Shown here piece after piece: positions 4,169 to 61,471 of a DNA stretch of 64,000 bases. Origin of the DNA: an uncultured Chloroflexia bacterium (lineage in GTDB: Bacteria > Chloroflexota > Anaerolineae > JAAEKA01). The stretch covers positions 93,356 through 157,355 of the forward strand of contig CAVPXC010000012.1 in assembly GCA_963709505.1 (NCBI GenBank), in the 5' to 3' direction. Each line of letters starts with the position of its first letter. Within the stretch, counting starts at the first letter, position 1. The position numbers and the translations under genes are program-made. The notes beneath the pieces are model-generated. The model was not told where the DNA came from. It did not search any database and saw only the letters and a list, made by a program, of their open reading frames with translations.

Positions 4169-6289
4169 TCAGGCAGGCTTGTCACGGTCTGCCTCGCCAG
4201 TGGGTGGGTTGCCTTCACTGCGCTCCGTCCGAAGCTTTCTGGCCTGCGCGGTCAGGTTCTGGAAGTATTCCGTATCGACGATCTCACCTACCTGCTTGCT
4301 TCGCTTGATCTCGTCGATCTCGATCCGCAGCTCCTTGATCTGGTTTTTTAGCTGCGTTTCACGTGATTGAACTTCCTGGGCGTTTTGAATGGCTACGGCC
4401 GCCTGGTTGGCCACGCTCTCCAACACCCGTAAGTTGTTGCTGTCGAAGGCGCTGCCCACCAGCTCGATGACACCGATCAGCTTGCCTCCAACCTGCAAGG
4501 GCACGCCCAGATAGGAGTACGGCGGGACGGCAAGACGACGCCAGGTGCGATCCAAGGTCGCCTCTTCCGGTGGGGCGGCTAAAAACGCAGTCATGTCGGC
4601 GATCAACAACCCTTCCCGCGTCTCGAGCAGCTTGTCGATCAGGCCCAAAGGCTGGGCATCGGCGCGTCCAGGCAATGGATATGTACGCCCAGATAGTTCC
4701 TGGGTCGAACCGCCACTGCCGGCGCTCGTTGTCACAGCGCTGCTGACTGGCTGAACAACGTCACCCTGAACGGCAAAACCATAGACGACCAGCTTGCCCT
4801 GGGTCGCATCGGCCAGGCTGATCTCGGCGGCATCGTAGGGAATGGCGCCGAGCAGCGAGGTGGCTAAGGAGGCCAGGGTCTCGTTGAGATCGATGCTCGA
4901 GGAAACCTTGCGGCCGATGTCGTAGATCGCTCGCAGCTCGGCCGTGCGCGCCTGTAAGGCGACAATCATGCGACTAAACACGCGCGCCAGGTGTCCCACC
5001 TCATCGCCTTGGTGGGTGACATCGGCGATTTGGCCAGGCATGAACGGTCGCTCCGCTTCAACTTCGCCAGCCGTGGTCGCCAAGGTGCTAATAGGTCGGG
5101 AGAGAGTACGTGCAACGAGCAGTGAGGCAATCACGGCTAGCACAGCCATCACCGCGGCGATTGCCAGGCCAAGCAAGCGCTGCCGCTCCACCGAGCCTAG
5201 GAAACTTGCTTCAGGCAAATCGACGACGACCATGGACAAACCAGATTGGCCTGCCGCTGCCGAACCCACTCCTTGTGTCGGGTTGGCCACGGGGGCAAAT
5301 GCGGCCACGTGAAACGCGCCGTTGCAGCGCTTCGCGTCGAAGGGGGCTGCCGGATCCGTGGGATGGCAGTAGCGCAAGCTGCCAGCCTTGGCCGACTGAA
5401 ACGCCTGGGCGACGGCGTCGCCCAGAGGCTGCACCGCCGGAATCGGTTCGGGTAAACGCGCTTCCTTTTCAGCCGGCGAGCACGTCGCCGCATTGTTGGG
5501 GCAAACGCCGCCTAGCGGCTTGGCTCCGGCAATCGCGGCCTGCGTTGTGGCGGAAAGCCCGCCCAGACTGCGGTACAACCAGTCGTCACCGCGCGATTGG
5601 CTCATCACAATGCCGTTCGGATCGACCAGATAAATGTTGATCGCTTCGCGCGCCTGCGATGCCACACCCTCGGTTTCAGCGTTCAAGGTCTCTCGAAAAA
5701 CGTCGTCGATGACCTTCTCGTCCAGATGGATTGCGACCGCGCCAACGACCGCCCCGTCTTCCTCGACCGGGGCAGAGAGACTGATACCCGGCTTGTCGTT
5801 GACCAGGTCACGCCGGAAGCTCGATGTATAAGCTTCGCCGGCCAGGGCTGCCTTGATGAAGTCACGCGTGGAGACATTGCGCCCGACCGTAGCCGGATCG
5901 GTGTGCGCCATGGCTGTACCGGTAGCGTTGTAGATGCCCACCGTGTCGATGTTGCCGTTGGCAAGCTGCATGTTGGATATGGCAGCGTTGAGGTCGCCTT
6001 GCCCACCCGGAGCGGCATCTGAGATCAAGGCCGCCGCCACCTGCGGATCGCTGGCGACGATACGCAGGAAGCCCTGGCTGTTGCTCAGGACGCTCGAGAT
6101 GTGCAGCGCGACGCTGCTGCCCAGGCGCGCCATGTTGTCCTGCGTCTGCTGCGTCAGCGCACCCACGCTGGACGCGCTGATAATCCAGGCAGCTAAGAGC
6201 AGGGGCACCAACGAAATCACCAGCATCACAACTAGCAGTTTTCTGGAGATCCGCCAATTTCGGAAGGACAACTTGTCTCGCATAGTCAT
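4169..6289 (-). CDS. membrane sensor protein: TM, Cache-like periplasmic domain, TM, HAMP, GAF, and the C-terminal conserved helical module
   Basis: 706 aa. N-terminal TM LLVVMLVISLVPLLLAAWII and a second TM LLGLAIAAVMAVLAVIASLLV, followed by a HAMP segment. GAF-like region (AIYDIGRKVSSSIDLNETLASLATSLLGAIPYDAAEISLAD...). C-terminal QIKELRIEIDEIKRSKQVGEIVDTEYFQNLTAQA. Confidence 0.75.
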   Translation of the reverse strand: MTMRDKLSFRNWRISRKLLVVMLVISLVPLLLAAWIISASSVGALTQQTQDNMARLGSSVALHISSVLSNSQGFLRIVASDPQVAAALISDAAPGGQGDLNAAISNMQLANGNIDTVGIYNATGTAMAHTDPATVGRNVSTRDFIKAALAGEAYTSSFRRDLVNDKPGISLSAPVEEDGAVVGAVAIHLDEKVIDDVFRETLNAETEGVASQAREAINIYLVDPNGIVMSQSRGDDWLYRSLGGLSATTQAAIAGAKPLGGVCPNNAATCSPAEKEARLPEPIPAVQPLGDAVAQAFQSAKAGSLRYCHPTDPAAPFDAKRCNGAFHVAAFAPVANPTQGVGSAAAGQSGLSMVVVDLPEASFLGSVERQRLLGLAIAAVMAVLAVIASLLVARTLSRPISTLATTAGEVEAERPFMPGQIADVTHQGDEVGHLARVFSRMIVALQARTAELRAIYDIGRKVSSSIDLNETLASLATSLLGAIPYDAAEISLADATQGKLVVYGFAVQGDVVQPVSSAVTTSAGSGGSTQELSGRTYPLPGRADAQPLGLIDKLLETREGLLIADMTAFLAAPPEEATLDRTWRRLAVPPYSYLGVPLQVGGKLIGVIELVGSAFDSNNLRVLESVANQAAVAIQNAQEVQSRETQLKNQIKELRIEIDEIKRSKQVGEIVDTEYFQNLTAQARKLRTERSEGNPPTGEADRDKPA

Positions 6290-14022: not shown

Positions 14023-14139
14023 GTCGGTGATCGGTGAATTGGTAGATTGGTGATCGGTGATTGGTGATCGGTGAAAGCAGTCACTCAATCATCTCAGGCC
14101 TGATTACCAATTACCAATTTACCGATTACCGATTACCGC
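14023..14139. repeat. heptamer-repeat hairpin element (GGTGATC tandem array on the left arm, GATTACC array on the right arm)
   Basis: Left arm ggtgatcggtgaattggtagattggtgatcggtgattggtgatcggtga, loop, then right arm gattaccaattaccaatttaccgattaccgattacc. The arms are complementary if G.T pairs are allowed. Confidence 0.8.
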
Positions 14140-14613
14140 TCACAGCGCCGGCGGATTCTCTTGATCCACATAGCCCTGGCTGATCTCGACGATGTTGCCC
14201 TCAGGGTCGGCGACCCAGACGGTGTTCCAGCCAGGGATGAAGGCGCCGAAGTCAAGCGGCCCTAGGGTGATCTTGGCGTCGTCACCCATTGCGGCCAGTT
14301 TGGCGTCCACGTCGTCCACTTTAAAGGCCAGGTGCCGCCATCCTGGGAAGTGCGGTCCATCGCCACCGACCGGCGGCGCCGGAGCGTCACCCTCGGCTTG
14401 GAACAGCTCCAAGTAAAGGTTGCCCGATTTGATGAAGACGAGCTGCACCTCGCCCAACGGAATGACCCGGCTGCGGGTGAAACCGAAGTGCTTGGTGTAG
14501 AAACGCTCCACAGCAAGCGGATCCCGGCAGGAAATGGCGACATGATGGAAATTCGCGTTAACCACATGGTCCTCCGTTTTGGGGAACAGTGAACAGTAAT
14601 GGTAATCAGTCAA
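14140..14613 (-). CDS. VOC (glyoxalase/bleomycin-resistance/dioxygenase) family protein
   Basis: 157 aa. Sequence FHHVAISCRDPLAVERFYTKHFGF, typical of the VOC fold. Confidence 0.7.
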   Translation of the reverse strand: MTDYHYCSLFPKTEDHVVNANFHHVAISCRDPLAVERFYTKHFGFTRSRVIPLGEVQLVFIKSGNLYLELFQAEGDAPAPPVGGDGPHFPGWRHLAFKVDDVDAKLAAMGDDAKITLGPLDFGAFIPGWNTVWVADPEGNIVEISQGYVDQENPPAL

Positions 14614-14676
14614 TTGGTATCGAACTGAGTGAGCCTCACTGTTTACTGTTCACTGTCTACCTACTGTTCACTGTAC
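14583..14676. repeat. heptamer-repeat hairpin element (GAACAGT/GTGAACA arrays)
   Basis: gaacagtgaacagtaatggtaatcag ... cactgtttactgttcactgtctacctactgttcactgtac. Confidence 0.7.
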
Positions 14677-15070
14677 TACCCGTTCAGCTGCGCCATCAAG
14701 CCAGCCTGGTCCCACACGTCCCACAACTCGGCAATCTTGCCGTCCTTGACGTGGAAGATCGTGATGCCGATCATCTTCACGCTCTTGTTTGTGGGGGGCA
14801 TGCCGAAGAAGTCGCCGGTGTGCGTTCCGGCGGCCGACCAGCGGCTGACGACCTTCTCGCCTTGGGTGAGCTGATCTTCCACCGTATAGTGCAGGTCGGG
14901 AAAAGCCGTCAGCAACAGGCCCACAAAGCCTTTGCCGATGTCACGGTGCGGGATCGTGTCGGTGTTGACGTGGCCGACGTAAGTCTCGGCCATGGCGTCG
15001 TTCCACAGGTCAGGTTATTCTCGTTGTACACCTGGTAGAACGTGTTGATTGGATCCATAATGTTCGACAT
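14676..15070 (-). CDS. SnoaL-like ester cyclase (NTF2 fold), with an apparent -1 frameshift near 15008
   Basis: The N-terminus MSNIMDPINTFYQVYNENN (AAGGAGA ribosome-binding site) is in one frame and the remainder DLWNDAMAETYVGHVNTDT...ELWDVWDQAGLMAQL is in another. One missing base in aacctg(g)acctg would restore NLDLW. Confidence 0.6.
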
Positions 15071-15098
15071 GTCGTATTCTCCTTGTTGAATAGTCTAA

Positions 15099-15668
15099 CT
15101 AGCGTTCGCTAAGTAGTTCGATAATCTTGCGAGCAAATTGATGGCAATGCCCACCCGTGCGCGCCGTCACCAGGTCGCCGTCCACCACCACGTCCTGGTC
15201 GGTGTAGATGGCGCCCATGTTGCGAATGTCGCCGTAGAGGTTGGGGTGGCCGACGACAGGCCGGCCTCGCACCAACTCCGGCGTCGTCGAGATCAGCCAC
15301 ATGCCGTGGCAGATGATGCCCTTGAGAATCGTCGGCTCGGCAAAGGCCCGTTGGACAAACTCGGTGGCCGGCGCCAATTTGCTCAGGTCATTGGTGTAGC
15401 GCAGCCGATCCGAGACGAAGGCCGAAGGCACGATAATCGCGCTGTAGCTGCGCAATTCTTCGTCGCTCATACCTTCGAACGTTTCACTGCAGTAAAAGGG
15501 CGCCTTGAACTCGTGGCCTGTGAAGGTGATCCCCGGCTGGCCCCACAAGCGGGTCAGCCAGTGCACCTCGATGCCTTCTTCGGCAAAACGGTGCTCGTAG
15601 TAGAAGATTTCCTTCTCGTAGAAGTCGCTCTCGATGAGGATGCCGATTTTTTTGCCTTGTAGTGTCAT
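15099..15668 (-). CDS. DJ-1/PfpI family protein (class I glutamine amidotransferase-like)
   Basis: 189 aa. Nucleophile elbow GIICHGMW. Sequence KKIGILIESDFYE. Confidence 0.75.
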   Translation of the reverse strand: MTLQGKKIGILIESDFYEKEIFYYEHRFAEEGIEVHWLTRLWGQPGITFTGHEFKAPFYCSETFEGMSDEELRSYSAIIVPSAFVSDRLRYTNDLSKLAPATEFVQRAFAEPTILKGIICHGMWLISTTPELVRGRPVVGHPNLYGDIRNMGAIYTDQDVVVDGDLVTARTGGHCHQFARKIIELLSER

Positions 15669-15675
15669 AGATCAC

Positions 15676-15790
15676 TCCGTGTCAATCTGATAACACGTAA
15701 CAGCGTAACACGTAACCCGGAATCCGGAGCACCGTGTCCAAGAGACGGGTTCCGGGTTCCGGGTTCCGGGTTACGTGTTACGCTTTACGT
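15676..15790. repeat. heptamer-repeat hairpin element (CGTAACA/CCGGAAC arrays)
   Basis: aacacgtaacagcgtaacacgtaacccggaatccgg ... ccgggttccgggttccgggttacgtgttacgctttacgtgttacg forms a long imperfect inverted repeat. Confidence 0.75.
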
Positions 15791-15791
15791 G

Positions 15792-16184
15792 TTACGCCAC
15801 CGTCCCATCAGGATACTGTGTCATACCGGCGAAGTGAATGGCGATTTTGCCATCGCGCAGCACCCAGCTGTCGGCGAAGCGCATCTTGGCCTCCTGGCCG
15901 CCGGCCGTCATCGTGATGGCCTCGACGATCATCAGCGTTTGAGGATCTTCAGTCTCGGCCCAGAACGCGATGTCGGTCTCCAGCCCCTCGATGCCCAGGA
16001 TGCCCTGCATGTGCTCGCGCAACTGCTCCTGGCCGCGATAGTAGAGAGGCTCCTTCATAAAGCTGCTGATCAGCAGACAGTCGTCGGTGTATTGGTCGCA
16101 CAAGGCGTCGATGTTCTTGTCCAGAATGTGCTGGATGTGCTCGCGATACATGTGACCGAGAGCGGTGTCGGGTACGTTTTTCAT
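15792..16184 (-). CDS. NTF2-like (SnoaL/ketosteroid-isomerase-like) protein
   Basis: 130 aa with NTF2-fold features (DALCDQYTDDCLLISSF...WVLRDGKIAIHF). Confidence 0.55.
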   Translation of the reverse strand: MKNVPDTALGHMYREHIQHILDKNIDALCDQYTDDCLLISSFMKEPLYYRGQEQLREHMQGILGIEGLETDIAFWAETEDPQTLMIVEAITMTAGGQEAKMRFADSWVLRDGKIAIHFAGMTQYPDGTVA

Positions 16185-16230
16185 GGGTTCATCTCCAGAG
16201 TGCTTACTATGGATAACTTTGTAACAAGTG

Positions 16231-16330
16231 ACTCGTAATCCGGAGATCGGTGATCGGTGATCGGTAGTCGGTATCCGGACAAGCAGTATATCATCTGCTG
16301 TTAATCCGGGTTACCGAGTTACCGATTACC
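16231..16330. repeat. heptamer-repeat hairpin element (GGTGATC / GATTACC)
   Basis: ggagatcggtgatcggtgatcggtagtcggtatccgg ... ccgggttaccgagttaccgattaccgattacg. Confidence 0.75.
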
Positions 16331-16332
16331 GA

Positions 16333-17871
16333 TTACGTTACTACGCCGCCAAAATCATCTCGGCCGCCTTCGCAGCCGATCATGAAGCAGGCGGCCACGG
16401 TGTTACCGCTGGTGACGGTCGGCATGACCGAGGCGTCGGCGACGCGCAGGCCCTCGACGCCGTAGACGCGCAGCTGCGGGTCCACAACGGCCATCGCATC
16501 CCGGCCGATCTTGCACGTGCCAGCCGGGTGCCACAGGGTCGAGCCCTGCGAGCGGATAAAGCCCTCCAGGTCCGCACCGGCGCCGGGCAGGATCTCAACC
16601 TCGTTGAGGTCGCTAAAGGCCGGCGTGTTGGCGATGGCGCGGATCACCTCGATCACCTTGACGAAGGCCTCAACGTCGGCGGGCTGCTGCAGGTAGTTGG
16701 GGTTGATCGAAGGCGGCGCTAACGGGTCGGCCGAGCGCAACGTCACCTCGCCGATGCTGAAGGGCTGCACCAGGATCGGCAGGAAGATACAGGCCGCAAA
16801 AGGTATGTTCAGAAGCGGCGCCAGCGGCGCGGGAATGCTGGGCGTGAAGTTGAGCTGCATGTCCGGCGGCGCCGCCTCGGCTCCCTCGCGGGTGCGCAGG
16901 AAGAGCACGTTGCCGGTCAAGCAGCGTGGTCATGGGCGAGTCGGTCTTGCGCTTGAAGACCACGGGCAGTTGCACGTGGTCCTGCAGGTTCTGGCCCACA
17001 CCCGGCAAGTCGGCGACGACGTCAATGCCATGCGGCGGCCAGGTGGTCGGCCGGGCCGATGCCCGGACAGCATCAACACCTTGGGCGACTGCAACGCGCC
17101 GGCGCTGACGATTACCTCACGGCTGGCCTGGGCCTGCTTCAGCTCGCCACCCTGGAGGTATTCGACGCCTACGGCCTTCTTGCCTTCGAAAAGGACGCGC
17201 GTGGCGTGCGCGCCGGTCTCCACGGTCAGGTTGGGCCGGTCCAGGATCGGGGTCAGAAAGACCGTGGCTGCGCTGGCGCGCTTGCCGTCGGGGCTGATGT
17301 GAAACTGCAGCAAGCCGGCGCCGTTTTCCTGTCGCGCGCCGTTGGTGTCCCAACGCGGACCGTCGTAGCCGACTTGGGTGGCGCCGACCATAAACTCGTC
17401 TGACACCATCACCGGATCGGGGCAATCGACTACAGGAATCGGCCCGCCGGCGCCGTGATACTCCGAATCGCCGCCCGCGTAATCCTCCAGCGACTTGAAG
17501 ATCGGCAGGACGTCCTTGTAGCTCCAGCCATCGGCGCCGAGAGCGTTCCACATGTCGTAGTTGAGCCGATTGCCGCGCACGTACATCATGGCGTTGACGG
17601 AGGTGCTGCCACCCAACACCTTGCCCTGGTTAATGATCAGACTGCGGCCGGCCATGCCCGCCTGTGCCTCGGTGCCGAGCGCCCAGTCGACGTCCGAGCC
17701 CCACAGCGACACAAAACTGCCTACATCGGCGATTGCTGGGTTCGTGTCGGAGCCGCCGGCTTCAAGCACCAGCACACGCATAGCTGGATTGGCGCTGAGA
17801 CGGTTGGCAACCACGGCGCCGGAGGCGCCGCTGCCGATAACGATGAAGTCAAAAGACTGGTGGGAGGTCAT
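16333..17871 (-). pseudogene. GMC-family (choline dehydrogenase-like) FAD oxidoreductase, disrupted by three single-base insertions within ~130 bp
   Basis: N-terminal FAD motif FDFIVIGSGASGAVVANRLS and C-terminal motif HPAGTCKIG...GLRVADASVMP. The three frame switches are LMLSG|IGPADHLAA|HGIDVVADLPGVGQNLQDHVQLPVVFK...TTLL|TGNVLFL, at about 17025, 16990 and 16915. Confidence 0.8.
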
Positions 17872-17928
17872 GGTCTGCTCCTGATGGTTCGAGTAGGCAA
17901 TTCTGTGAGCCTACAAAATGATTGGGAT

Positions 17929-18618
17929 CTATTTCGCCGGCGCGGCGGCCTGTTGCTGCTGTTTTGCAGCTGCCTGGGCCGCTAACGCCTTGGTTTTCAT
18001 CTCGCCCAGTCGCTTGGCATTCCAATAGACCAGGAGTACGCAGGTGATGATGACCAAGGCAGAGTGAAGAGCCCAAGGCTGCGAAGCCTCCCAGCGTAGA
18101 GTCACGGTCACGTAGTAGATGACAGCCAGGAGGAAATAGGTGCCTGCTCGCAAAAGATGGCCGCGGATGTCGGCGACGCGCTCCGTGCGCTCGGTGCCCT
18201 GGTAGTGCCGCAACCGATTGGTGTGCCAGCCGACCATCAACAGGTGAAAAACAGCCAACGCAGCGATGTAGTACCAATAGTTCGGTGGGTTTCCTGCCAG
18301 GAAGCTGAAGCTGAAGATGAAGTACAGCACCGAAAACCGGATCACGTCAAAGAAGAAGACGGAGTAATCGAGCGTATATGGAAAGCGCTCGATGAGCAGG
18401 CTGTACGAAAGCCACACCGAAACGACGAAAAACAACGTCGCGATGAACGATATCACAATCAGGACATTGGCGGGTGTCGACAGATCAAACACCGGACCGG
18501 TAGTGAGCTTAAACGTAACCATGAACTCACGGAAGAACGTGACCAACATGACCGAGAAAAAGAAGGTGATCAGAGTTGGCAAACGCTGTAAGTACCTTGC
18601 AAGTGGATCAGGATTCAT
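17929..18618 (-). CDS. integral membrane protein of unknown function
   Basis: About 6 hydrophobic segments. Start at MNPDPLARY with a GGGAAGG ribosome-binding site. C-terminal Gln/Ala-rich tail. Confidence 0.5.
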   Translation of the reverse strand: MNPDPLARYLQRLPTLITFFFSVMLVTFFREFMVTFKLTTGPVFDLSTPANVLIVISFIATLFFVVSVWLSYSLLIERFPYTLDYSVFFFDVIRFSVLYFIFSFSFLAGNPPNYWYYIAALAVFHLLMVGWHTNRLRHYQGTERTERVADIRGHLLRAGTYFLLAVIYYVTVTLRWEASQPWALHSALVIITCVLLVYWNAKRLGEMKTKALAAQAAAKQQQQAAAPAK

Positions 18619-18669
18619 ACGCAGTTCACCTTCCCTATCGTTACCTACTGACATCTGGGCTGGAACTTT

Positions 18670-18775
18670 TTGCGGAGACACGTCTCAAAGCGACGGAAGT
18701 TGCAGGTTGCAGGTGGCTGGTTGCAAGGACTTGCAACTTGCCACTTGCAACCTGCAACCTGCCACCTATTCCACC
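18670..18775. repeat. heptamer-repeat hairpin element (GCAGGTG/GCAAGTG arrays)
   Basis: gttgcaggttgcaggtggctggttgcaaggacttgcaacttgccacttgcaacctgcaacctgccacc. Confidence 0.75.
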
Positions 18776-18780
18776 GTGGT

Positions 18781-19194
18781 TTACTTCTGCAACTGCTCGA
18801 TCAGGCCCCAATCGTCCCAGTTCGCCCAGGCCTCGGTGATCTTGTCGCCGACCACATGGTACATGACCAGGCCCTTCCAGGTGGCGCGCTTGCCTGTGGC
18901 CGGAATCCCGGCGAAGGTGCCGGTGTGGGTGCCGGGCGCCTGGAAGCGTACGACCACCTTGTCGCCCTCGGCCACCATGTCCACGATCTTCAGGTCCAGG
19001 TCCGGAAACGCGGCATAGAGCATGTCCATCTGGTTGTGCAGGGCATTCTCGCCCTTGATCGCCTCAGGCACGGCCGAGCGATCGATGTAGAAGCCCGGCG
19101 CCGTAAACTGCGTGAACTTGCTGAAGTCTCGCTCCACCAGAATCGCCTGCGCATAGGCGCGCACGATTTCTTTGTTCTGTTCAATCGAACCCAT
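18781..19194 (-). CDS. SnoaL-like ester cyclase
   Basis: Sequence MGSIEQNKEIVRAYAQAIL...DKITEAWANWDDWGLIEQL. Confidence 0.7.
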   Translation of the reverse strand: MGSIEQNKEIVRAYAQAILVERDFSKFTQFTAPGFYIDRSAVPEAIKGENALHNQMDMLYAAFPDLDLKIVDMVAEGDKVVVRFQAPGTHTGTFAGIPATGKRATWKGLVMYHVVGDKITEAWANWDDWGLIEQLQK

Positions 19195-19196
19195 GA

Positions 19197-19818
19197 CTAA
19201 TCTCCTTGTTTGCCAAAATGATCGAGCAGTGTCTGCAAGATGATCGGGTACTGCCCGCCGTTGAAATGATGCGCGCCCGGCACGACGACCACGGAGGCGC
19301 TCAACTTGTCTTGCCACGCGGTGCGGTTGGCTCGCCAGTCTGATGTGTGCGGATCGTTGTCGGATATCATGACCACGATCTGCCGGCCGGCCGCTGTCTT
19401 GGCCCGCTCCAGGTCGAACGGCGTGTTGATCCAGGGCATCAGGCTGTCCCAGGGCGCATCGGTCCAGAACCAGCCGGCCACGCAGAGCGTGCCGTCAACG
19501 TGAACGCCTTCCGGCAGCTCGGCCAACGCACGCAGGACTGCCTGGCATCCCACGCTGTGCCCGACGATCACAGTCCGGGCGATTTCGTCGGGATCAGAAC
19601 CGAGCACCTGCATGACCCTTCCGACCCAAGCCGAAATAGTTGGCTCGCCCGGGTTGGGCATGGCAGACACCACGACCGGATCGAAAGGCAGCGGAAGGTC
19701 TCGATACGGCGGCGGACCGCCTACTCGACCGACGGATTCAGCTCCGCTGCAGCCAGGGATACCAGTCGCTTGCCGGCGTGCCGGACCAGCGCGGGATGAC
19801 GATCAGACGCTTGCTCAT
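19197..19818 (-). CDS. RBBP9/YdeN-like serine hydrolase (alpha/beta fold), with an apparent frameshift near 19700
   Basis: The N-terminus MSKRLIVIPRWSGTPASDWYPWLQREL ends at a stop. The remainder, in another frame, is PPYRDLPLPFDPVVVSAMPNPGEP...GHSVGCQ (GXSXG)...ISDNDPH. Confidence 0.65.
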
Positions 19819-19835
19819 TGGGTGCCTGATGCTGC

Positions 19836-20264
19836 CTAGCCTTCGTAGAGCATCTTGATGCCATCGATCTGGCGCATCAAGCCCATCACGTCGTTCTCCA
19901 CAATGGCCTTCACCAGCTTACCTTCGGGTGAGAACCAGAAGAAGGTGACGCCGTCGATCGACACATTCTTGTTGCTGCCGGGCACGTTGCGCCAGGTGCC
20001 GACGTGCTTGCTGCTCATGGTCCACCAGGAAGCCGCCTTGGTGTCGTCGGCCACGATGTCGTTCGCGACGTAGGTCAAGCCCTCGAAGGCGATGCGGTTG
20101 CGCGTCACCATGCCCTTGAACCCGTCGATCGTGTCGGTACGCGTGAACGCCAGAATGAAGGCGAAGTTGGGATCGATCAGCTCGTCGATCGTATCCATGT
20201 CGCCTTTGCTCCAAATCTCGGTCATGAAACGCCGTATGGCGTCCTCGTTCTCTTTCTTACCCAT
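19836..20264 (-). CDS. SnoaL-like ester cyclase
   Basis: Sequence MGKKENEDAIRRFMTEIWSKGDMDTIDELI...KLVKAIVENDVMGLMRQ. Confidence 0.65.
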   Translation of the reverse strand: MGKKENEDAIRRFMTEIWSKGDMDTIDELIDPNFAFILAFTRTDTIDGFKGMVTRNRIAFEGLTYVANDIVADDTKAASWWTMSSKHVGTWRNVPGSNKNVSIDGVTFFWFSPEGKLVKAIVENDVMGLMRQIDGIKMLYEG

Positions 20265-20707
20265 TGTGTCGTTCTCCTTCTTAAATTAGTGGTCAAGCTG
20301 GGCAATACGTCAAGCTGCTGAAGCAGGCCCAGGCTATCCTGAGCCACCCACATCTCGACGATCTTGCCGTTTTCGATGCGAAAGATGTCAATGCCCTTGT
20401 CGATCACGCGCTTACCCGTTGCCGGACGTCCCAAAAACTCGCCCGTGTTGGTAGCCACATAGCTCCAACGTGTCGCCACCAGATTTCCCTCAGCCATCTC
20501 GATATCTACGGTAAAATGCACGTCTGGGAAAGCTACGAGTGCAGTTTCGAACCATTTATGCAGGTTAGGCGGTTGATGCGCCTGGCCTCCGGGAAAATTA
20601 AAGATGACAGGTTCCACAGCAATCTCGTCGATGATCTCGCCATGCTTGTCGTTCCACAATTCGTACCAGTAGCGCCGCACAACGGCTTTATTTGCTTCGA
20701 TTGACAT
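20222..20707 (-). CDS. SnoaL-like ester cyclase (C-terminus extended by ~25 aa, overlapping the next gene by 43 nt)
   Basis: Sequence MSIEANKAVVRRYWYELWNDKHGEIIDEI...KIVEMWVAQDSLGLLQQL. Confidence 0.65.
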   Translation of the reverse strand: MSIEANKAVVRRYWYELWNDKHGEIIDEIAVEPVIFNFPGGQAHQPPNLHKWFETALVAFPDVHFTVDIEMAEGNLVATRWSYVATNTGEFLGRPATGKRVIDKGIDIFRIENGKIVEMWVAQDSLGLLQQLDVLPSLTTNLRRRTTQWVRKRTRTPYGVS

Positions 20708-20721
20708 AGTTGTTAGTAACT

Positions 20722-20812
20722 CCGGCTGTAGATTGGTAGATTGGTAGATTGGTAGATTGGTTAGATTGGTAGATTGGTACCAATTACCATTACCAATCTA
20801 CCAATCCGCCAA
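20722..20812. repeat. octamer-repeat hairpin element (GATTGGTA x6 / TACCAATC arrays)
   Basis: gtagattggtagattggtagattggtagattggttagattggtagattggtaccaattaccattaccaatctaccaatc. Confidence 0.8.
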
Positions 20813-20816
20813 GCTA

Positions 20817-21257
20817 TTAACCAGGTGGCGGCGGGACAACGCCAAGCTGTTGCAGCAAGCCCAGCTCGTCCACATTGGCCCAGCGCTCGACGATCTGGCC
20901 GTCGCGCATGCGGACGATGGTGGTGCCGCTAAAGGTCAGTTGCTTGCCACTGGGCGGCATGCCCATCACGCCACCGGTGTCGGTGCCAACCAGGTGCCAG
21001 CGGTGCACGACCTTGTCGCCGGCGTACACTTCGTCGTCGATGGTCAACTGGATGTCGGGCATGGCGGCACGGAACATGCCGACGATGGCGCGGAAGCTGG
21101 CGCTGCCTTTCTCCGTCTTCGGCTTGCCGCCAACCGTTGAATGATCATCTGCGTCGGGGGCAATCAGCGTATCGAGTACGCTGAAATCGCCCTTGTTCCA
21201 GACTGAGTTGAAGAACTTCTCGGCGATGGCGTTGTTGGCTTCGGGTGAATAGGACAT
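20817..21257 (-). CDS. SnoaL-like ester cyclase
   Basis: Sequence MSYSPEANNAIAEKFFNSVWNKGDFSVLDTLIAPDADDHST...ERWANVDELGLLQQLG. Close paralog of 22151..22561. Confidence 0.7.
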   Translation of the reverse strand: MSYSPEANNAIAEKFFNSVWNKGDFSVLDTLIAPDADDHSTVGGKPKTEKGSASFRAIVGMFRAAMPDIQLTIDDEVYAGDKVVHRWHLVGTDTGGVMGMPPSGKQLTFSGTTIVRMRDGQIVERWANVDELGLLQQLGVVPPPPG

Positions 21258-21335
21258 TGGGATTCTCCTTGTTTACGTTATCGTCAGTTCGACTATCGGC
21301 GGCTGTCAGGTCGCCGAGATCTACAATTAACCAAG

Positions 21336-22125
21336 TCAGCGAGCGTTGGCGGGCAAGACGCCCTCCAGCGTGCCAACGAGCTGCAGCGACACCTGGCCGC
21401 CTTGCAGCAACATCACATCATAAACGGTGCGCACTCCCAGGCTGCCGCCCGCCGTGGCCTCGAACCAGACGTAGTCGTCATCGCCGGTAATGTTGCGCAT
21501 GAATACCAGATGGAATCCACTCTCCGTTTCGAACTTGTGACGGAAGAACGAGCGCAGGGCCTCGCCGCCTTCGACTGAAAGCTTACCCGTGACAAGACGA
21601 GCGTCGGCGGTGAAGAAGTCGTCGGCCATGCCGTCGGTATCCTGGCGAGCCTGGTAGTCGATGTAGCGATGGTGCACCCGTTGAGCATCTTCGTTGACCG
21701 GCGGGACAAAGCCCGCAAAGTCGCCAGGCTGCCACACGCTGCCCTGCTTCGAGCCGTAGAGCTGCAGGTAGACCTGACCGTGGCGCAGGAACTTCATCTC
21801 ATATGGCTCGATCAGGCCGGCTGGGCTGTCGATCACAAGCTCCTGCCAGATGAAGTCACGCCCGGCGACGAGCTGCTGGACCCGGACAGGGCCGAAGCCG
21901 GCCAGTCGCTCCGTCATCAGCTCGATCACACCTTTGACGGCCGGCCGGCCTTCGGCGCGGAAAGTTAAAGCCATGCAGACGGGCGTCCTCGGTGTACAGA
22001 TCGCGCACCAATCCATCCAGATCGCCGCGCTGCGCGTACGCCATCCGTCGCGCCTGATAGGCCTGGGCCTGTTCGACGCTGGCGGGATCGCCGACAATCA
22101 TGGGGGCAATGCGGTCGTCTGTCAT
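21336..22125 (-). CDS. tandem NTF2-like (SnoaL_2) two-domain protein, with an apparent single-base insertion near 21965
   Basis: MTDDRIAPMIVGDPASVEQAQAY...LYTEDARLHGFNF in one frame continues as RAEGRPAVKGVIELMTERL... in another. An extra c in tttccgc explains the shift. Confidence 0.6.
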
Positions 22126-22150
22126 GAGGTAACTCGTGTCCACCAATCTA

Positions 22151-23462
22151 CTAACCAGGTGGCGGCGGCGCAATGCCAAGCTGCTGGAGCAGGCCCAGCT
22201 CGTCCACGTTGGCCCAGCGCTCGACAATCTTGCCGTCGCGCATGCGCACGGTGGTGATGCCGCTGAAGTGCAGCTCTTTGCCGCTGGGCGGCATGCCCAT
22301 TACGCCACCGGTGTCCGTGCCAACGAGGTGCCAGCGGTGCACGACCTTATCGCCGGCGTAAACCTCGTCGTCGATGGTCAGCTTGATGTTGGGCATCGCA
22401 CTGCGGAACATGGAGACGATCGCAAGGAAGCTGGCGCTGCCTTTCTCGGTCTTGGGCTTGCCGCCAACCGTCGAGTGGTCGTCCGCATCGGACGCGATCA
22501 GCGTGTCGAGCACGCCGAAGTCGCCCTTGTTCCACACCGAGTTCGAAGAAGCGCACGGCAATAGCGTTGTTTTCTTCGGGAGTGAACTGGCGCGCGGACG
22601 GACGGCCGGCCGTCATCTGAGTGGTCAGGCCAAGCTGATTGGCAACCACGTGGATGGCGCGGATCTTGCCGCCCCAGAACTCGAAGAAGTCAATGCCATA
22701 CTCGTCAACCTGGCTTCCGGACGGTTGAACGCCGTTGAACTCGCCAACGTGCTGGCCGGTGATACGCCAGCGTAGGGCTGCCTTGTTGTCGCCGGCAAAC
22801 TCGCGCACGACCTCGAATTTGAGGTTGGCGAACGCCTGGCGGAGGTAGCTAACGTAGCCGCGCAGCGCCTCTTTGCCGGAGAGCGACGGCATGGTGGGCA
22901 AGCTGAACTGAAAGTCGTCGGCGAGGATCTCGTCCATAGCTGAGAAGCGCCCCTTGTTGAGCAGCTCGTCGAAGAAGCGGCGAGCCGTTGCCAGGTTCTG
23001 CTCCGGCGTAGTTGCGGTCCGAGGGCTAGGCATGACGCCAAGCTGCTGGAACATGCCAATGGTGTCCTCGTGGCCGATGACCTCGACGATCTTGCCGTCC
23101 TTGATCCGGTGCCAACTCATGCCGTCGATCTCGAAGTAACGGCCGCTGGGCGGGACGTCGCCGGCGACGGTGTGGATGGCGCCGCCCAAATGCGTGCCGC
23201 CGCCGCGCCACCTGGTCACCACCATATCGCCCGACGCCACCATGTCCTTGGCGTGGATGTAGAAGTCGGGAAAACACCCATGCAGCATGGTCACAAGATC
23301 CTTGAAACCGTCCGGGCCTACGTACGGCTCAGGATGCGTCGGCAGGGTAAAGACGAAATCAGGCGTCAGCAGCTCGTACAGGGTGCCGAGATTGCCATCC
23401 GTCATGATCTCCTTAAAGTAGCGCATCGCGATGTACTTGTTCTGGGTTTCCGACATGCTCAC
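22151..23462 (-). CDS. three tandem SnoaL-like ester cyclase domains in one reading frame (third domain shifted by one inserted base near 22578)
   Basis: Domain 1 runs MSMSETQNKYIAMRYFKEI...GMFQQLGVMP. Domain 2 runs PEQNLATARRFFDELLNKGRF...VVANQLGLTTQ. Domain 3 runs MTAGRPSARQFTPEENNAIAVRFF(N)SVWNKGDFGVLD...LGLLQQLG. There is no stop between the domains. Confidence 0.6.
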
Positions 23463-23560
23463 ATCACCTCTTCAGTCTCTTTCTTCTCCATCGGGAGAAG
23501 CATCAACGGCCAAACTCCGGCTCCCCTCTCCGTAGTAGAAAAGGAAGCTTGAGGAAGAAT

Positions 23561-23670
23561 GCTAGAGGTATCTTCTCAACTTGTAGGGGCCAGGCCCTTG
23601 CGGTCGCCCTAGCGGGCAGGCGCAAAGCCGTGCCCCTACCCCGGATTATTGAGAAGATACTGCTAGAGCC
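23561..23670. mobile_element. MITE-like ~100-bp element (family A) with ~25-bp terminal inverted repeats GTATCTTCTCAA....GTAGGGGC
   Basis: Left end gtatcttctcaacttgtaggggc and right end gcccctaccccggattattgagaagatac. The core ttgcggtcgccct.g..ggcaggcgcaa.gccgtgcccctacc is about 85% identical to the reverse complement of 44693..44790. Confidence 0.65.
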
Positions 23671-24148
23671 GTGCAAAGCCCGGTGCATAGCTCGGCGGCA
23701 CGACTACCGCGTTGTAGCTCTCGATCACCAGCCCGTACGGGTTCTTGGTCGAAGGACGCAAGGTCCAGGCCTGCGTAAAGTCGGCTGAGACACGCTTGCT
23801 TTTGGCGGCCGGCGGCACGAACCAGCTGGCCTGCCACGCCACGACGACCTGAACGTTGATGTTATCGCCATCGATCTTCGGATCGACGCTCACCACGTTG
23901 TGGTTTTCGTCGAAAAAGAGGTTAATCACACCCGGCGCCTTCTCGCCGTCGGAATACGTGCCGCCAGAATACCAGGCGACAAAATCGCCGACGCCGTGCA
24001 GGGTCTTCTCGGGGAAGATCATTTGGACGTTCTCATCCGCCACGAGTTCGAGGATCTTCTCAGTCGGCACGTGGAAATCCAGCGCCTGGTACCAGGCCGC
24101 GGCAAAGGCTTGAATTTGTTCTTGGGTAACTGCGTTATGTCCAGTCAT
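23663..24148 (-). CDS. NTF2-like protein (SnoaL-like superfamily)
   Basis: 161 aa. Sequence MTGHNAVTQEQIQAFAAAWYQALDFHVPTEKILELV. Confidence 0.5.
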   Translation of the reverse strand: MTGHNAVTQEQIQAFAAAWYQALDFHVPTEKILELVADENVQMIFPEKTLHGVGDFVAWYSGGTYSDGEKAPGVINLFFDENHNVVSVDPKIDGDNINVQVVVAWQASWFVPPAAKSKRVSADFTQAWTLRPSTKNPYGLVIESYNAVVVPPSYAPGFARL

Positions 24149-24164
24149 GGGATATCTCCTTTGG

Positions 24165-24300
24165 ATCGGTGAACAGTCAACAGTCAGTCAACAGTCAACA
24201 GAAGTTGCGACTACTTGCTTCTTATCTGTTCACTGCTTACTGCTTACTGCTTACTGCTTACTGCTCTACTGTTCACTGTTCACTGTTCACTGCCTAAGTC
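24165..24300. repeat. heptamer-repeat hairpin element (GTCAACA / CTGCTTA / CTGTTCA arrays)
   Basis: ggtgaacagtcaacagtcagtcaacagtcaacag ... ctgttcactgcttactgcttactgcttactgcttactgctctactgttcactgttcactgttcactg. Confidence 0.75.
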
Positions 24301-24668
24301 GGGAACGAGAACGGGCTGACCGAGATCACGCCCGTGAATTGATGGGTTGCCTTGTTATCACGCAACATGAACACGTCGTAGACCTTGGCCTCGGCCAGGT
24401 TGGTGTGCAGAGTGGCCTCGAAAAAAATCGAGTCCTCCGTCTCCGTAAAACGATCGGTTGACACCAGCTTCAAGCTGCCCAATCGAGCAAGATACGCCAC
24501 GAAGTGCTCACGCAGCGCCTGGCGGCCTTTGATCGTGAAGTCGAAGCCGATCAACACTGCGCCGTCGTGATAGTGCTGCATTAGCCCGTCGATATCGTGG
24601 GCCTCCAGTGCAGCGACCTGCTCTTGGTAGAATTTCTGGCCTGCTGTCAAGTTCGAAGAAGTCGTCAT
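24294..24668 (-). CDS. NTF2-like / SnoaL_2 protein
   Basis: Sequence MTTSSNLTAGQKFYQEQVAALEAHDIDGLMQHYHDGAVLIGFD. An alternative upstream ATG lies at 24698. Confidence 0.55.
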   Translation of the reverse strand: MTTSSNLTAGQKFYQEQVAALEAHDIDGLMQHYHDGAVLIGFDFTIKGRQALREHFVAYLARLGSLKLVSTDRFTETEDSIFFEATLHTNLAEAKVYDVFMLRDNKATHQFTGVISVSPFSFPT

Positions 24669-24699
24669 GATATGTATGCTGCGAGTATCCCGATCCATC

Positions 24700-24800
24700 G
24701 ATAGATTGGTAGATTGGTAGATTGGTCGTAGAACGATACTGGCGAGTCCGCGTTGCCTTTCCCACCAATCTACCAGTTTACCAATCTACCAACCTACTGC
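24700..24800. repeat. octamer-repeat hairpin element (GATTGGTA / TACCAATC)
   Basis: gatagattggtagattggtagattggtcg ... ccaccaatctaccagtttaccaatctaccaacc. Confidence 0.75.
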
Positions 24801-26527: not shown

Positions 26528-26640
26528 CCGGTAGACCGAGTAGATTGGTAGATTGGTCGGGTGACCGGGTACTGGTGAGGTTCGATGTACCCAACTCTAC
26601 CTAGCTTACCTTGTCACCTTTCACCTTCTACCATCCGTAC
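26528..26640. repeat. octamer/heptamer-repeat hairpin element (GTAGATTG / GGTGACC arrays)
   Basis: gaccggtagaccgagtagattggtagattggtcgggtgaccgggtactggtgagg ... cccaactctacctagcttaccttgtcacctttcaccttctacc. The inverted repeat is imperfect. Confidence 0.55.
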
Positions 26641-28299: not shown

Positions 28300-28400
28300 G
28301 AAAGAGCCGTTGTAGTGCAGGTGGACAGGTGGCAGGTAGCAGGTGGCATACAGTTGCTACTTGCCACTTGCCACTTGCAACCTGCAACCTGCAACTTGCC
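28300..28400. repeat. heptamer-repeat hairpin element (GGCAGGT/GGCAAGT arrays)
   Basis: caggtggacaggtggcaggtagcaggtggcatacagttgctacttgccacttgccacttgcaacctgcaacctgcaacttgcc. Confidence 0.8.
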
Positions 28401-28447
28401 CACCCTTACGAAGGCCGATAGTTGACGCCAACCTCGTCATCTGTAAA

Positions 28448-30554: not shown

Positions 30555-30720
30555 GCTACAAGTTGCAAGTGGCAGGTGGCAGGTGGCGGATGGCAGGTGG
30601 CAGGTGGCAGGTGGCAAGTGGCAAGTGGCAAGTGGCAAGTGGCAGGTTGCAGAACACTTATCACTTGCCACCTGCCACCTGCCACTTGTAACCTGCCACC
30701 TGCGAGCCGAACTGCCGATG
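30555..30720. repeat. heptamer-repeat hairpin element, asymmetrically expanded (about 14 GGCAGGT/GGCAAGT units on the left, about 6 complementary units on the right)
   Basis: caagttgcaagtggcaggtggcaggtggcggatggcaggtggcaggtggcaggtggcaagtggcaagtggcaagtggcaagtggcaggttgcag ... cacttgccacctgccacctgccacttgtaacctgccacctgc. Confidence 0.8.
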
Positions 30721-30927
30721 CCGCTGACTTGCCGAATTGGGACTTGCTAGCTACAATTCCGCAACGTATCATGTCTTGAGTTGCATCGAAGCCTTCGTTG
30801 CCAACACAAGTAAAATCATCAGGGGCATAGCTGCCTGGCGTAAAGTTGCACGACCGATCTATGCTGTTGTGTCGAATTGGCGCTACCAACGGCCTGACTG
30901 CCTAGCTATCAAGGAGATAGAGTAACA

Positions 30928-42029: not shown

Positions 42030-42794
42030 ATGCACGGATTGACCTTAGAACCGGAAAGCAGCTATCTCCACGTGGACAAGATCAACATTTTGCAGTCGGT
42101 AAGCATCTTCTCGACCACGCCGCGCCACATCCTGGCCGAGGTGGCTGACAAGCTGGAGGAGGTCGAGGTCCTGTCAGGGGCAACGATCTTCGAAAAAGGC
42201 GACCCGGGCACGTCGATGTACATTGTCGTCGACGGCTCGGTGTGGGTACACGATGGCGACATGAGCATCAACTACCTGCACACGCGCGACGTCTTTGGCG
42301 AGATGGCGGCTCTTGATCCCGTCCCGCGCAGCGCCTCCGTGACCGCGGTAGAGGACACACACCTCTTCAGGCTGGAACAGGACGAGTTGCACGAGATCAT
42401 GATGCGCTCACCGGAAATCGCCGATGGCATCATCCGCGTGCTCTGCGAACACCTGCGCGCTCGGGTATCAGATATGAAAGAGGATTACCTCTACATGCAG
42501 CAGTTCGCCAAGGTGACCGCCGCAGCCGCCGCGGTCGAAAGTGGCGTGTACATCCCCGAGGCGCTGGACGATGTCGCACAGCGCACCGATGCTCTGGGCC
42601 GGCTGGCGCGCGTGTTCCAAAGCATGATGCGCGAGGTCTACACCCGCGAGCAACGCTTCAAGAAACAGATTGCCGAGCTACACATCGAGATCGACGAAAC
42701 ACGAAAGGCGCTCCAGGTCTCGGAGATTACGGAGACGGAGTACTTTCAAGAGCTCAAACAACGGGCCGGCGCGCTGCGGCGGGCGAAGCAGTAG
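42030..42794 (+). CDS. cyclic-nucleotide-binding (cNMP) domain protein with the C-terminal conserved helical module
   Basis: cNMP-binding motifs (GATIFEKGDPGTSMYIVVDGSV...FGEMAALD...RSASVTAVEDTHLFRL). C-terminal KKQIAELHIEIDETRKALQVSEITETEYFQELKQRA. The gene starts 45 nt after the cyclase stop. Confidence 0.8.
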   Translation: MHGLTLEPESSYLHVDKINILQSVSIFSTTPRHILAEVADKLEEVEVLSGATIFEKGDPGTSMYIVVDGSVWVHDGDMSINYLHTRDVFGEMAALDPVPRSASVTAVEDTHLFRLEQDELHEIMMRSPEIADGIIRVLCEHLRARVSDMKEDYLYMQQFAKVTAAAAAVESGVYIPEALDDVAQRTDALGRLARVFQSMMREVYTREQRFKKQIAELHIEIDETRKALQVSEITETEYFQELKQRAGALRRAKQ

Positions 42795-42875
42795 TGCAGG
42801 TTGCAAGTGGCAAGTGGCAGGTTGCAGGTTGCAGGTTGCAGCTTGCCACCTGCAACTTGCCACCTGCAACCTGCA
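42795..42875. repeat. heptamer-repeat hairpin element (GCAGGTT/GCAAGTG arrays)
   Basis: gtgcaggttgcaagtggcaagtggcaggttgcaggttgcaggttgcagcttgccacctgcaacttgccacctgcaacctgcat. Confidence 0.8.
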
Positions 42876-46244: not shown

Positions 46245-46306
46245 CTTTGTACAGCATTGCGTAAACCCGTGCCGGGTTTACGCAATGCTGTACAAAGGTT
46301 TTCGTT
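46245..46306 (+). terminator. perfect 24-bp inverted repeat (CTTTGTACAGCATTGCGTAAACCC / GGGTTTACGCAATGCTGTACAAAG) with a 5-nt spacer, followed by GTTTTCGTT. Probable intrinsic terminator, possibly also a protein-binding palindrome.
   Basis: Exact reverse complementarity verified by eye. A T-rich tract follows. Confidence 0.5.
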
Positions 46307-49846: not shown

Positions 49847-49851
49847 CAGTG

Positions 49852-49950
49852 GAGGGTGGAGAGTGGAGGGTGGAGGGTGGAGGGTGGAGGGTCCGAAGCA
49901 GATGTTCCGCGGCCAGCTCCCCACCCTCCACCCTCCACCCTCCACTGATT
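49852..49950. repeat. heptamer-repeat hairpin element (GGAGGGT x6 / CCACCCT x4)
   Basis: gtggagggtggagagtggagggtggagggtggagggtggagggtccgaagcagatgttccgcggccagctccccaccctccaccctccaccctccac. Confidence 0.8.
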
Positions 49951-52671: not shown

Positions 52672-52677
52672 TCCTCG

Positions 52678-53670: not shown

Positions 53671-53724
53671 AGATATCCATCCGCCTCCTTCAGCGCCAAC
53701 TGTTCACTGTTCACTGTTCACTGT

Positions 53725-61400: not shown

Positions 61401-61471
61401 TTCGTTGTGCCACTCTTGGGTGACTTGCGGACACTGGACCAGTCTCCGATGGCTGGACCAGTCGCAGCAAC

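Follow-up and report, generated by a model that had tools for sequence, protein, structure and literature searches.

What builds long hairpins from very short tandem units in the gaps between bacterial genes, and what keeps them in place? The question is raised by 64,000 nucleotides of contig CAVPXC010000012.1 from an uncultured Chloroflexia bacterium (hereafter the window, meaning the whole stretch that was analysed), where a unit of 7 or 8 nt is repeated in tandem and followed, after a loop, by an array of its reverse complement. Comparison with relatives shows that unit-wise slippage, together with the amplification of mutated units, generates these arrays and keeps remodelling them, and that the hairpin persists at fixed intergenic sites despite replacement of the unit.

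Repeat hairpins at fixed intergenic sites

As was found by Tandem Repeats Finder (TRF), period-7 or period-8 arrays occupy all the loci at which the preliminary description of this DNA had proposed intergenic hairpins, and both the search for inverted arms and the folding agree that the hairpins are real. A self-match periodicity scan of the 64-kb window gave 16 runs of period 7 (720 nt) and three runs of period 8, and zero runs of periods 5, 6 and 9–12. The presence of 16 period-7 runs against none at these other periods indicates that the periodicity is specific, far beyond chance, and is not a general low-complexity effect. The window contains 12 clear hairpins of tandem 7- or 8-nt units facing their own reverse complement, one decayed copy at 26.5 kb and one single-arm array at 53.7 kb. 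These 14 loci, numbered E1–E14 along the window, represent at least six unit consensus types, and every one is located in a gap between open reading frames (ORFs). Two of the loci are weaker: the fold of E9 (26528–26640) is no longer significant (z = −1.3 and −1.9 against shuffles) and E14 (53695–53735) is a single arm that has no inverted partner and forms no hairpin on folding, in agreement with its earlier designation as a half-site.

RNA folding placed the 12 elements 4–11 standard deviations above shuffled sequences in stability, and the arms delimited at 15.7, 18.7, 30.6, 42.8 and 49.9 kb measure 26–55 nt and are 84–100% complementary. The density amounts to 12 hairpins per 64 kb, 10 of which are found within 17 kb. 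The claim that almost every gap between 14 and 31 kb contains the structure was overstated: 17 gaps of at least 40 nt were counted there after the 14566–14675 gap had been re-drawn, and 10 clear copies and one weak copy lie in them, which is most of the gaps and not almost all. A covariance-model scan of the whole window revealed no Rfam family above the gathering thresholds.

The position of the elements relative to the genes is regular. In mRNA orientation, the array starts 0–13 nt past the upstream stop codon, and in E3 and E4 the TAA stop falls within the first CGTAAC unit. The stem ends about 10–25 nt ahead of the next start codon and leaves a GGAG-type ribosome-binding site unpaired. Eight of the 12 clear hairpins lie between co-directional minus-strand genes and two (E11 and E12) between co-directional plus-strand genes; one spacer is convergent (E13) and one is divergent (E10). 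This supports the earlier reading of the elements as non-coding repeat hairpins of gene 3′ ends and intercistronic spacers. Given the start right after the stop codon, the free ribosome-binding site and the same-strand gene strings, it is most likely that the elements are transcribed within polycistronic mRNAs.

Identity with intrinsic (Rho-independent) terminators was rejected, since no U-tract directly follows the hairpins; E13 is followed only by a short TGATTTTA, and E12 by no T-run. A consensus scan found 17 terminator-like sites at 12–31.5 kb, none of which coincides with an element, and promoter-like hexamers, according to the consensus scan, are not enriched and do not overlap with the elements.

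Relatives were found through the proteins encoded beside the elements. The 605-aa protein next to E1 has no exact match on record; its best relative, with 92% amino acid identity, belongs to a metagenome-assembled genome (MAG) named Anaerolineae bacterium, and the other matches are mostly from Chloroflexota. The contig of that MAG (L001) is syntenic with the window over 12 kb, with 80–86% nucleotide identity. Three more contigs were recovered via the VOC protein, namely L083 (95.5% nucleotide identity over 8.4 kb), L084 (about 86%) and L085 (about 81%), and a metagenome scan gave at least two short contigs, L081 and L082, with a 230-aa membrane protein showing 78% amino acid identity. L001, L083, L084, L085 and L081/L082 are from different assemblies. 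Repeat hairpins are present at orthologous intergenic sites of L001, L083, L084 and L085, every orthologue folds well, and every compared relative keeps some hairpin at the sites compared; across them, neither an empty orthologous site nor a target-site duplication was seen. The elements had been called genome-specific, which they are not: a like architecture occurs in these four relatives, in cyanobacterial loci and in published descriptions of short tandemly repeated repetitive (STRR) sequences and of Xanthomonas and Geobacter metallireducens arrays.

The elements change rapidly. In comparison with L083, the elements differ at 29.7% of their columns, including 16.5% substitutions and many indels; other intergenic DNA differs at 6.3% and coding sequence at 3.7%, and 7.6% of third codon positions are substituted. 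Element divergence is about five times that of other intergenic DNA, and substitutions alone reach about twice the third-codon-position rate. It is slippage with amplification of mutated units that makes the elements evolve several times faster than neighbouring near-neutral sites. The comparison of unit counts with L083 makes slippage visible, as the preliminary description had anticipated, since E7 in the window has gained in one arm 4–5 extra AAGCAGT units that are absent from L083, and unit numbers differ between the window and its relatives at other elements, too.

The aligned arms also contain single-step unit intermediates, such as CGTAAT(C/T) → GGTAATC in E4 (16.3 kb), GTAACCC → GGAACCC in E3 (15.7 kb) and GATTGGTA → GATCGGT in E1 (14.1 kb), where units of the last two types are mixed. 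This indicates that several of the "different" units are mutational derivatives that were later homogenised. The unrelatedness of the units had been taken as an argument against descent from a single element, which does not hold where orthologous sites switch units over short distances through single-step intermediates; yet the six consensus units as a set are no more alike than shuffled 7-mers (p = 0.13). A common GTRR core was tried and abandoned: it is present in five of the six window families (random expectation 0.26 per unit) but in only 27% of the units of other loci, which is the random level, and the motif had been chosen after the fact.

Retention of the stem was assessed by simulation, in which the observed number of substitutions was placed at random in the element of one genome and the resulting stability was compared with that of the other genome. 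Random placement equalled the stability of the partner in no more than 3% of trials for E1, E2 and E5, while the share was 6% for E4; for E3, the result was significant in one direction only. The stems are thus preserved well beyond what substitutions falling at random would permit. Of the mechanism suggested in the preliminary description, slippage combined with template switching or with a dedicated enzyme, one part can be seen directly in the one-arm expansion of E7, and a process keeping both arms complementary is needed. The dedicated enzyme found no counterpart in the window, as a Pfam scan of about 60 window ORFs revealed no transposase, RAYT, reverse transcriptase or integrase.

Origin and maintenance of the paired arms

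With modest confidence, the elements can be considered slippage-driven repeat hairpins whose arms are kept complementary by selection and/or template switching, and which serve as intercistronic RNA stem-loops. Slippage and amplified mutant units make the arrays, and an array followed by its inverted copy gives the stem. The complementarity of the arms may be held by selection for the stem-loop, by template switching at the quasi-palindrome, copying one arm, or by both. A repeat stem would tolerate gain and loss of units through re-pairing in a shifted register, and such out-of-register re-pairing may partly explain the durability of repeat hairpins. The hairpins would be carried within polycistronic mRNAs as intercistronic or 3′-end stem-loops, possibly for protection from exonucleases, as double-strand-specific processing sites, or as pause or attenuation sites.

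Several observations weigh against this explanation. About 40% of the gaps in the gene string are free of hairpins, so a hairpin is not obligatory there. Transcription through the elements is deduced solely from the gene arrangement. Where a single strand can be called sense, it has the better fold in three of 10 cases, and the distribution of G·U against C·A mismatches does not favour the sense strand. Site-by-site compensatory changes between the window and L083 are rare, with one each in E1 and E5 and none in E3 and E6, and the case for structure retention is therefore made by the simulation and by re-registering; since periodic stems re-register, a site-by-site covariation test is uninformative for them. 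A purely mutational origin of the arm complementarity is not separable from selection in these data.

The asymmetry between the strands was considered separately. According to the preliminary description, the arms of the GGTGATC/GATTACC copies pair only if G·U is allowed, which works only on the plus-strand transcript. For E1, the preference for the plus strand is correct (−65.3 kcal/mol on the plus and −47.6 kcal/mol on the minus strand, against −33.4 ± 3.2 for shuffled sequences), but the flanking genes are on the minus strand, so the stable RNA would be antisense. As an argument for a plus-strand transcript it fails, because 12 of 13 hairpins fold better on the plus strand regardless of how the genes are oriented. 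For the same reason, sense-strand G·U wobble was rejected as a sign of RNA-level selection; the asymmetry, being independent of gene strand, is evidence neither for nor against a function of the sense RNA. The many G·U pairs of E1 may stem from one or two amplified unit variants, one per arm.

Another asymmetry does not depend on the strand, since the reverse complement of a hairpin is a hairpin of the same polarity and the identity of its G-rich arm is thus the same on both strands. The 5′ arm is G-rich in nine of the 10 scorable window hairpins, in all nine hairpins with a clear skew in close relatives (one more is neutral), and in 36 of 44 clear-skew hairpins of other, mostly cyanobacterial, loci. 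The total of 54 out of 63 repeat hairpins with clear skew (window, L001, L083–L085 and other loci) overstates the evidence, given the lack of independence between orthologous sites. When an ungapped inverted-repeat finder was used as a second detector, the repeat hairpins were G-first in a ratio of 21:3, against 16:12 for non-repeat palindromes of the same DNA, and this contrast with ordinary palindromes is suggestive. We know of no report of G-first handedness. The G-rich arm is synthesised first on either strand, as would be expected if G-rich nascent strands favoured fold-back or template-switch synthesis; the handedness could equally reflect a constraint on the transcript. Avoidance of Rho was set aside as its cause, because cyanobacterial loci show the same handedness and cyanobacteria are not known to have Rho. 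It is a speculative and rather unlikely proposal that a directional structure-restoring process builds and renews hairpins from arbitrary 7–8-nt units in both Chloroflexota and Cyanobacteria, with the handedness as its signature. Fold-back or template-switch synthesis on a G-rich nascent strand, or an as yet undescribed enzyme, could be candidates for such a process.

The main rival of the selected or template-switched RNA stem-loop treats the hairpins as a functionless by-product of replication, where slippage makes the arrays, intramolecular template switching at quasi-palindromes copies the arms, and regeneration outpaces decay. It is a possible explanation, if on the unlikely side, and it accommodates the evolution of the elements at a rate above that of third codon positions, the one-arm expansions, the decayed (E9) and single-arm (E14) copies, the many gaps that lack elements and the near absence of site-specific compensatory changes; the G-first handedness also points to directional synthesis, and the excess of heptamers in bacteria has been attributed to polymerase slippage (PMC4692102). 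It accounts less easily for the non-repeat hairpin found at the E5 site of a relative, suggesting that the site itself calls for a hairpin, and for elements that begin right after the stop codon and consistently spare the ribosome-binding site. Moreover, the arrays in the cyanobacterial loci are mostly unpaired, with at most four of up to 16 arrays per locus paired against 17 of 26 in this lineage (by a strict detector that under-calls imperfect pairs), so slippage does not by itself lead to pairing. That low-complexity reads produced an assembly artefact, a concern raised in the preliminary description, has negligible probability, as nothing was found in its favour and four assemblies made independently in different projects (L001, L083, L084 and L085) have hairpins at these same intergenic sites, with flanks that align cleanly at 80–95% identity.

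Transposition of whole hairpins as miniature mobile elements (REPIN-, MITE- or SDR-like) by an enzyme encoded elsewhere would explain why unit families recur, the GGCAGGT type at four loci and the GATTGGTA type at three, and why close relatives can differ in the unit type that occupies an orthologous site. This is very unlikely, since copies within one unit family share only the unit, with loops that are not significantly similar and with different lengths and ends, which argues against the transposition of whole elements; in addition, the orthologous arms show gradual unit mutation and no insertion boundaries, and neither a transposase nor a RAYT gene was found among about 60 window ORFs, nor an empty site or target duplication in the sites compared. 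The best case for such a movement, a whole-element transfer from E1 to E4 whose loops share AGATGAT..ACTGCTT, has a nominal p = 0.02 in one of 132 comparisons, which is not significant, and the stepwise unit mutation of the aligned arms leaves it unsupported. It is also highly improbable that the arrays are binding sites of a heptamer-recognising regulator or nucleoid protein, such as the BTAD/AAA_16 regulator, whose gene lies between E10 and E11 and thus has a GGCAGGT hairpin on either side. The heptamers of SARP sites are spaced about 11 bp, unlike contiguous 7-bp arrays; there are at least five to six units per genome, and their replacement at fixed sites is hard to square with sequence-specific recognition; and most elements are at gene 3′ ends, not at promoters. 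The idea draws on the paired arrays of G. metallireducens, annotated as putative sites of a global regulator (PMC2700814), and on the binding of heptameric direct repeats by SARP-type regulators, as stated in the title of PMC5930380.

Individual elements and neighbouring genes

The genes at 0.2–28 kb are almost wholly on the minus strand, and the 14–25 kb region is a string of small enzyme genes, including at least 11 genes of SnoaL-like cyclases along with VOC/glyoxalase, DJ-1/PfpI, split GMC oxidoreductase, serine hydrolase and thiamine pyrophosphate (TPP) enzyme genes. The run of at least 11 SnoaL-like genes (polyketide cyclase/ester cyclase fold) at 14676–24698 is unusual. It includes a fused multi-domain gene (22347–23462), whose L083 counterpart encodes a 434-aa triple-SnoaL protein, and some of the paralogues are about 86% identical at the nucleotide level. 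The GMC oxidoreductase is divided into two ORFs, with the N domain at 16930–17871 and the C domain at 16333–16920; the split reflects a frameshift, a pseudogene or an error in the sequence, and the L083 gene call covers the C-terminal part only.

Elements E1–E9 belong to the minus strand. E1 (14023–14139) is situated between the stop of the VOC gene (14140) and the start of the 605-aa GlcNAc-2-epimerase-like gene (14003); its GGTGATC/GGTGATT units, in the left arm of the plus strand, face GATTACC units. The orthologues in L083, L084, L085 and L001 are hairpins of GGTAATC heptamers or GATTGGTA octamers. E2 (14583–14676), between the stop of a SnoaL gene (14676) and the start of the VOC gene (GTG at 14565), is a composite with outer GTGAACA units and inner TTGGTA-type remnants (z = −5.2). 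The outer units are alike in L083, where the TTGGTA interior is longer, and the site is occupied by GATTGGTA-type units in L084 and L001 and by TGATTGGG 8-mers in L085. It is this GTG, and not the TTG at 14613, from which the VOC gene really starts.

E3 (15676–15797) is nested, with CGTAACA units outside and CCGGAAC/GGGTTCC units inside. Its 27-nt arms at 15702–15784 are 96% complementary, and the predicted folding energies (ΔG) are −73.8 and −66.6 against −35.6 for shuffled sequences. The upstream neighbour, a SnoaL_2 gene, has its TAA stop inside the first unit, as read from the sequence, and the L001 site contains CGTAAC-type units only. E4 (16231–16336) is a GGTGATC/GGTAATC hairpin with CGTAAC remnants on its flanks and follows the stop of the GMC oxidoreductase gene; the site is of the CGTAAC type in L083 and L001, and 47% of columns differ from L083. 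E5 (18695–18770) follows the stop of a SnoaL gene (18781) and consists of GGTTGCA/GGTGGCA/AGTGGCA units in arms of 29 nt that are 90% complementary. The site is of the GGCAGGT type in the window and L083 and of the GGTGATC type in L001, and in L081 and L082 it carries a unique non-repeat hairpin of 22 bp.

Two elements consist of octamers. E6 (20722–20816) is built of six GATTGGTA units opposite TACCAATC (period 8, 95% matches, z about −9) and is nearly unchanged in L083, with 5% of columns differing. E8 (24697–24797), directly after the stop codon of the TPP-enzyme gene, has three TAGATTGG units opposite CCAATCTA (ΔG −43.8 against −19.6 for shuffled). Between them, E7 (24165–24297) combines a CAACAGT/GTGAACA hairpin with the one-arm expansion of ACTGCTT units, in plus-strand letters; its CAACAGT unit is, we presume, STRR3. 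In the decayed E9, GTAGATTG and GGTGACC units face degenerate TCTACC and TCACC units.

E10 (28311–28401) is located in the divergent spacer upstream of the gene for the BTAD + AAA_16 regulator and consists of GGCAGGT units facing GCAACCT/GCCACTT units (z = −6.5 on the plus and −3.7 on the minus strand). E11 (30555–30712), on the plus strand directly after the stop of the regulator gene (30553), is the largest copy, with about 13 GGCAGGT/GGCAAGT units (12.6 copies by TRF) facing about six CACCTGC units; its 55-nt arms at 30587–30709 are 84% complementary, and ΔG is −116 against −63. The regulator gene (28343–30553), of the SARP/AfsR-like kind, is thus flanked by GGCAGGT-type hairpins on both sides, and promoter-like hexamers are found right after E10 (28422–28449) and after E11 (30729–30772). 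E12 (42794–42875), on the plus strand between the genes of a cyclic nucleotide (cNMP)-binding protein and an LtrA-family protein, is a TGCAGGT/GGCAAGT hairpin with a 3-nt loop, and its 39-nt arms at 42795–42875 are 87% complementary. E13 (49847–49947) separates the convergent genes of an aldo/keto reductase and an SDR protein and has six to seven GGAGGGT units opposite three to four CCACCCT units. The arms at 49862–49946 are 26 nt long and 100% complementary, ΔG is −77 against −42, and the G-rich arm has at least four GGG tracts. The single-arm E14, on the minus strand, contains 4.6 copies of CTGTTCA with 100% matches.

Read in the G-rich orientation, most units of E1–E4 and E6–E8 contain a stop triplet: TGA in GGTGATC and GTGAACA, TAA in CGTAAC and GGTAATC, and TAG in GGTAGATT. 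With a 7-nt period and a stop triplet in the unit, three units are enough to close every reading frame. No stop triplet occurs in the GGCAGGT and GGAGGGT families. Several program-listed ORFs start in the arrays or read through them (14589–15038, 18670–19200, 20757–21140 and those starting at 28343 and 42794). Gene callers are likely to misplace starts beside these elements, and short-read assemblies also err there.

The window contains other repeats and hairpins. At 34177–34400 there are about 15 tandem copies of a 14–16-nt unit, GACTCCTGGAGCCCC, each with CTCC-T-GGAG. This array begins inside the 3′ end of a 1112-aa cadherin/Big_9 gene, giving ...PDSWSPDSWSPDSWSP until the frame breaks, and runs into the spacer; its minus strand folds far better (−112.6 versus −75.9 kcal/mol). 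A second class of intergenic hairpins, of non-repeat sequence, is represented at 46245–46297, 51094–51189, 52593–52672 and 61290–61430, with arms that include a perfect 33-nt one (AGATCGGTCCGGTCCCCGAAGACCGGACCGATC and its complement), a perfect 25-nt one and a 34-nt one at 85%. Hairpins containing TTCGGAAG/CTTCCGAA are present in orthologous or neighbouring spacers of L081 (205–265) and L001 (4966–5088). Adjacent genes of a Phd/YefM-like antitoxin and a PIN-domain toxin are located at 55046–55756.

Comparison with known systems

As to membership in a catalogued family, which the preliminary description had left to be checked, Rfam gave no match, and the literature describes a known kind, the STRR sequences, as well as the REP/BIME/REPIN elements of Proteobacteria, from which the window elements differ. 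The latter are likewise imperfect palindromes that abound outside genes and often separate the genes of an operon, with proposed roles in mRNA stabilisation, termination and supercoiling (PMC3116915; abstract of PMC3733652). REPs are conserved sequences of 20–40 nt whose ends are defined by GTAG or CGTC tags and which RAYT transposases spread, whereas copies in the window share a 7–8-nt unit only. REP/REPIN identity was rejected, as the window copies have no conserved 20–40-nt palindrome with defined termini and their loops and ends differ. A functional analogy is offered by the early mRNA of phage T7, where intercistronic stem-loops are cut by RNase III to leave protective 3′ hairpins. In both cases long stem-loops stand between successive cistrons, but each T7 site has a sequence of its own, with internal loops and no array of repeats.

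Heptamers are over-represented among long simple sequence repeats (SSRs) of many bacteria, and two species of Xanthomonas have GGGAATC arrays in corresponding gene intervals, where the arrays vary extensively in both length and sequence (PMC4692102). As in the window, some of the GGGNATC-type arrays of Xanthomonas and Nostoc are inverted pairs able to form stem-loops (PMC4692102), and in G. metallireducens tandem arrays of hepta- and octanucleotides form pairs on opposite strands (PMC2700814). These three systems have one dominant unit type and are mostly unpaired; the window has many unit types and mostly hairpins. The (GGAGGGT)n array of E13 is capable of forming a G-quadruplex, as in the GGGNATC-type systems, whereas most window units have no GGG tracts. 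In Beggiatoaceae, TAACTGA arrays occur upstream of start codons (PMC4679880).

Within Chloroflexota, heptamer arrays are known from Chloroflexus aurantiacus, whose genome contains 22 dispersed satellites that derive from (GATAGRA)n; these have a single unit type and a host of the class Chloroflexia, unlike the Anaerolineae-like window, and the word "hairpin" does not occur in the searched passages of their description (PMC6749651). A contig of Ca. Chloroploca (L058) has two near-identical 126-nt elements at 804–929 and 5922–6047, 5 kb apart, with three copies of GACGCGAA on one side and three of CCTTTGCG on the other; its separate (TAGGAAA)n array resembles the Chloroflexus satellites. Literature searches gave no description of hairpins like those of the window in Anaerolineae.

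The closest likeness is to the STRR sequences and heptamer long SSRs. The window elements are of the same kind, in another phylum: head-to-tail 7-nt units in at least three copies, dispersed non-coding loci with several unit types per genome, pairing with an adjacent inverted array into an intergenic hairpin, and conserved positions at which length and sequence vary rapidly from one close relative to the next are all found in them. The original narrow definition, which includes a filamentous or heterocystous cyanobacterial host, does not apply. The search that yielded the relatives also found period-7 arrays to be frequent in loci of filamentous cyanobacteria (Okeania, Argonema, Rivularia, Hormoscilla and Anabaena), with array–loop–inverted array hairpins of precisely this build in four of them (L043, L055, L065 and L072). 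That intergenic regions of close relatives are variable but structured is reportedly the message carried by the title of a 1995 paper by Jackman and Mulligan. STRR hairpins lie between co-transcribed genes of filamentous cyanobacteria, such as hupS and hupL, and have been proposed to act in translational coupling, termination or the stability of the transcript (PMC2670836). In the nif genes of Anabaena, stem-loops at processing sites are associated with longer transcript half-lives (PMC4284476). Papers of 2009 and 2015 called the function of heptamer repeats unknown or uncharacterised (PMC2670836; PMC4692102).

The novelty is limited to the host lineage, the dominance of the paired form, the quantified hypermutation with hairpin retention, and the G-first handedness. 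To a question of function that has been open since the first cyanobacterial description of heptamer hairpins, the window adds a second phylum with an unusually dense set and a first quantitative picture of their evolution from close relatives, which provides testable constraints on models of an RNA stabiliser, a processing site or a by-product; the spacers can also serve as hypervariable markers for strain typing. Like STRR, the window elements are tandem 7-nt units of several types per genome, intergenic and often arranged as array, loop and inverted array. They are distinguished from STRR by an Anaerolineae-like Chloroflexota host, G+C-richer units and a mixture of 8-mers with 7-mers, and from the cyanobacterial loci by the prevalence of paired arrays, of which the strict detector, under-calling imperfect pairs, counted 0–4 per cyanobacterial locus.

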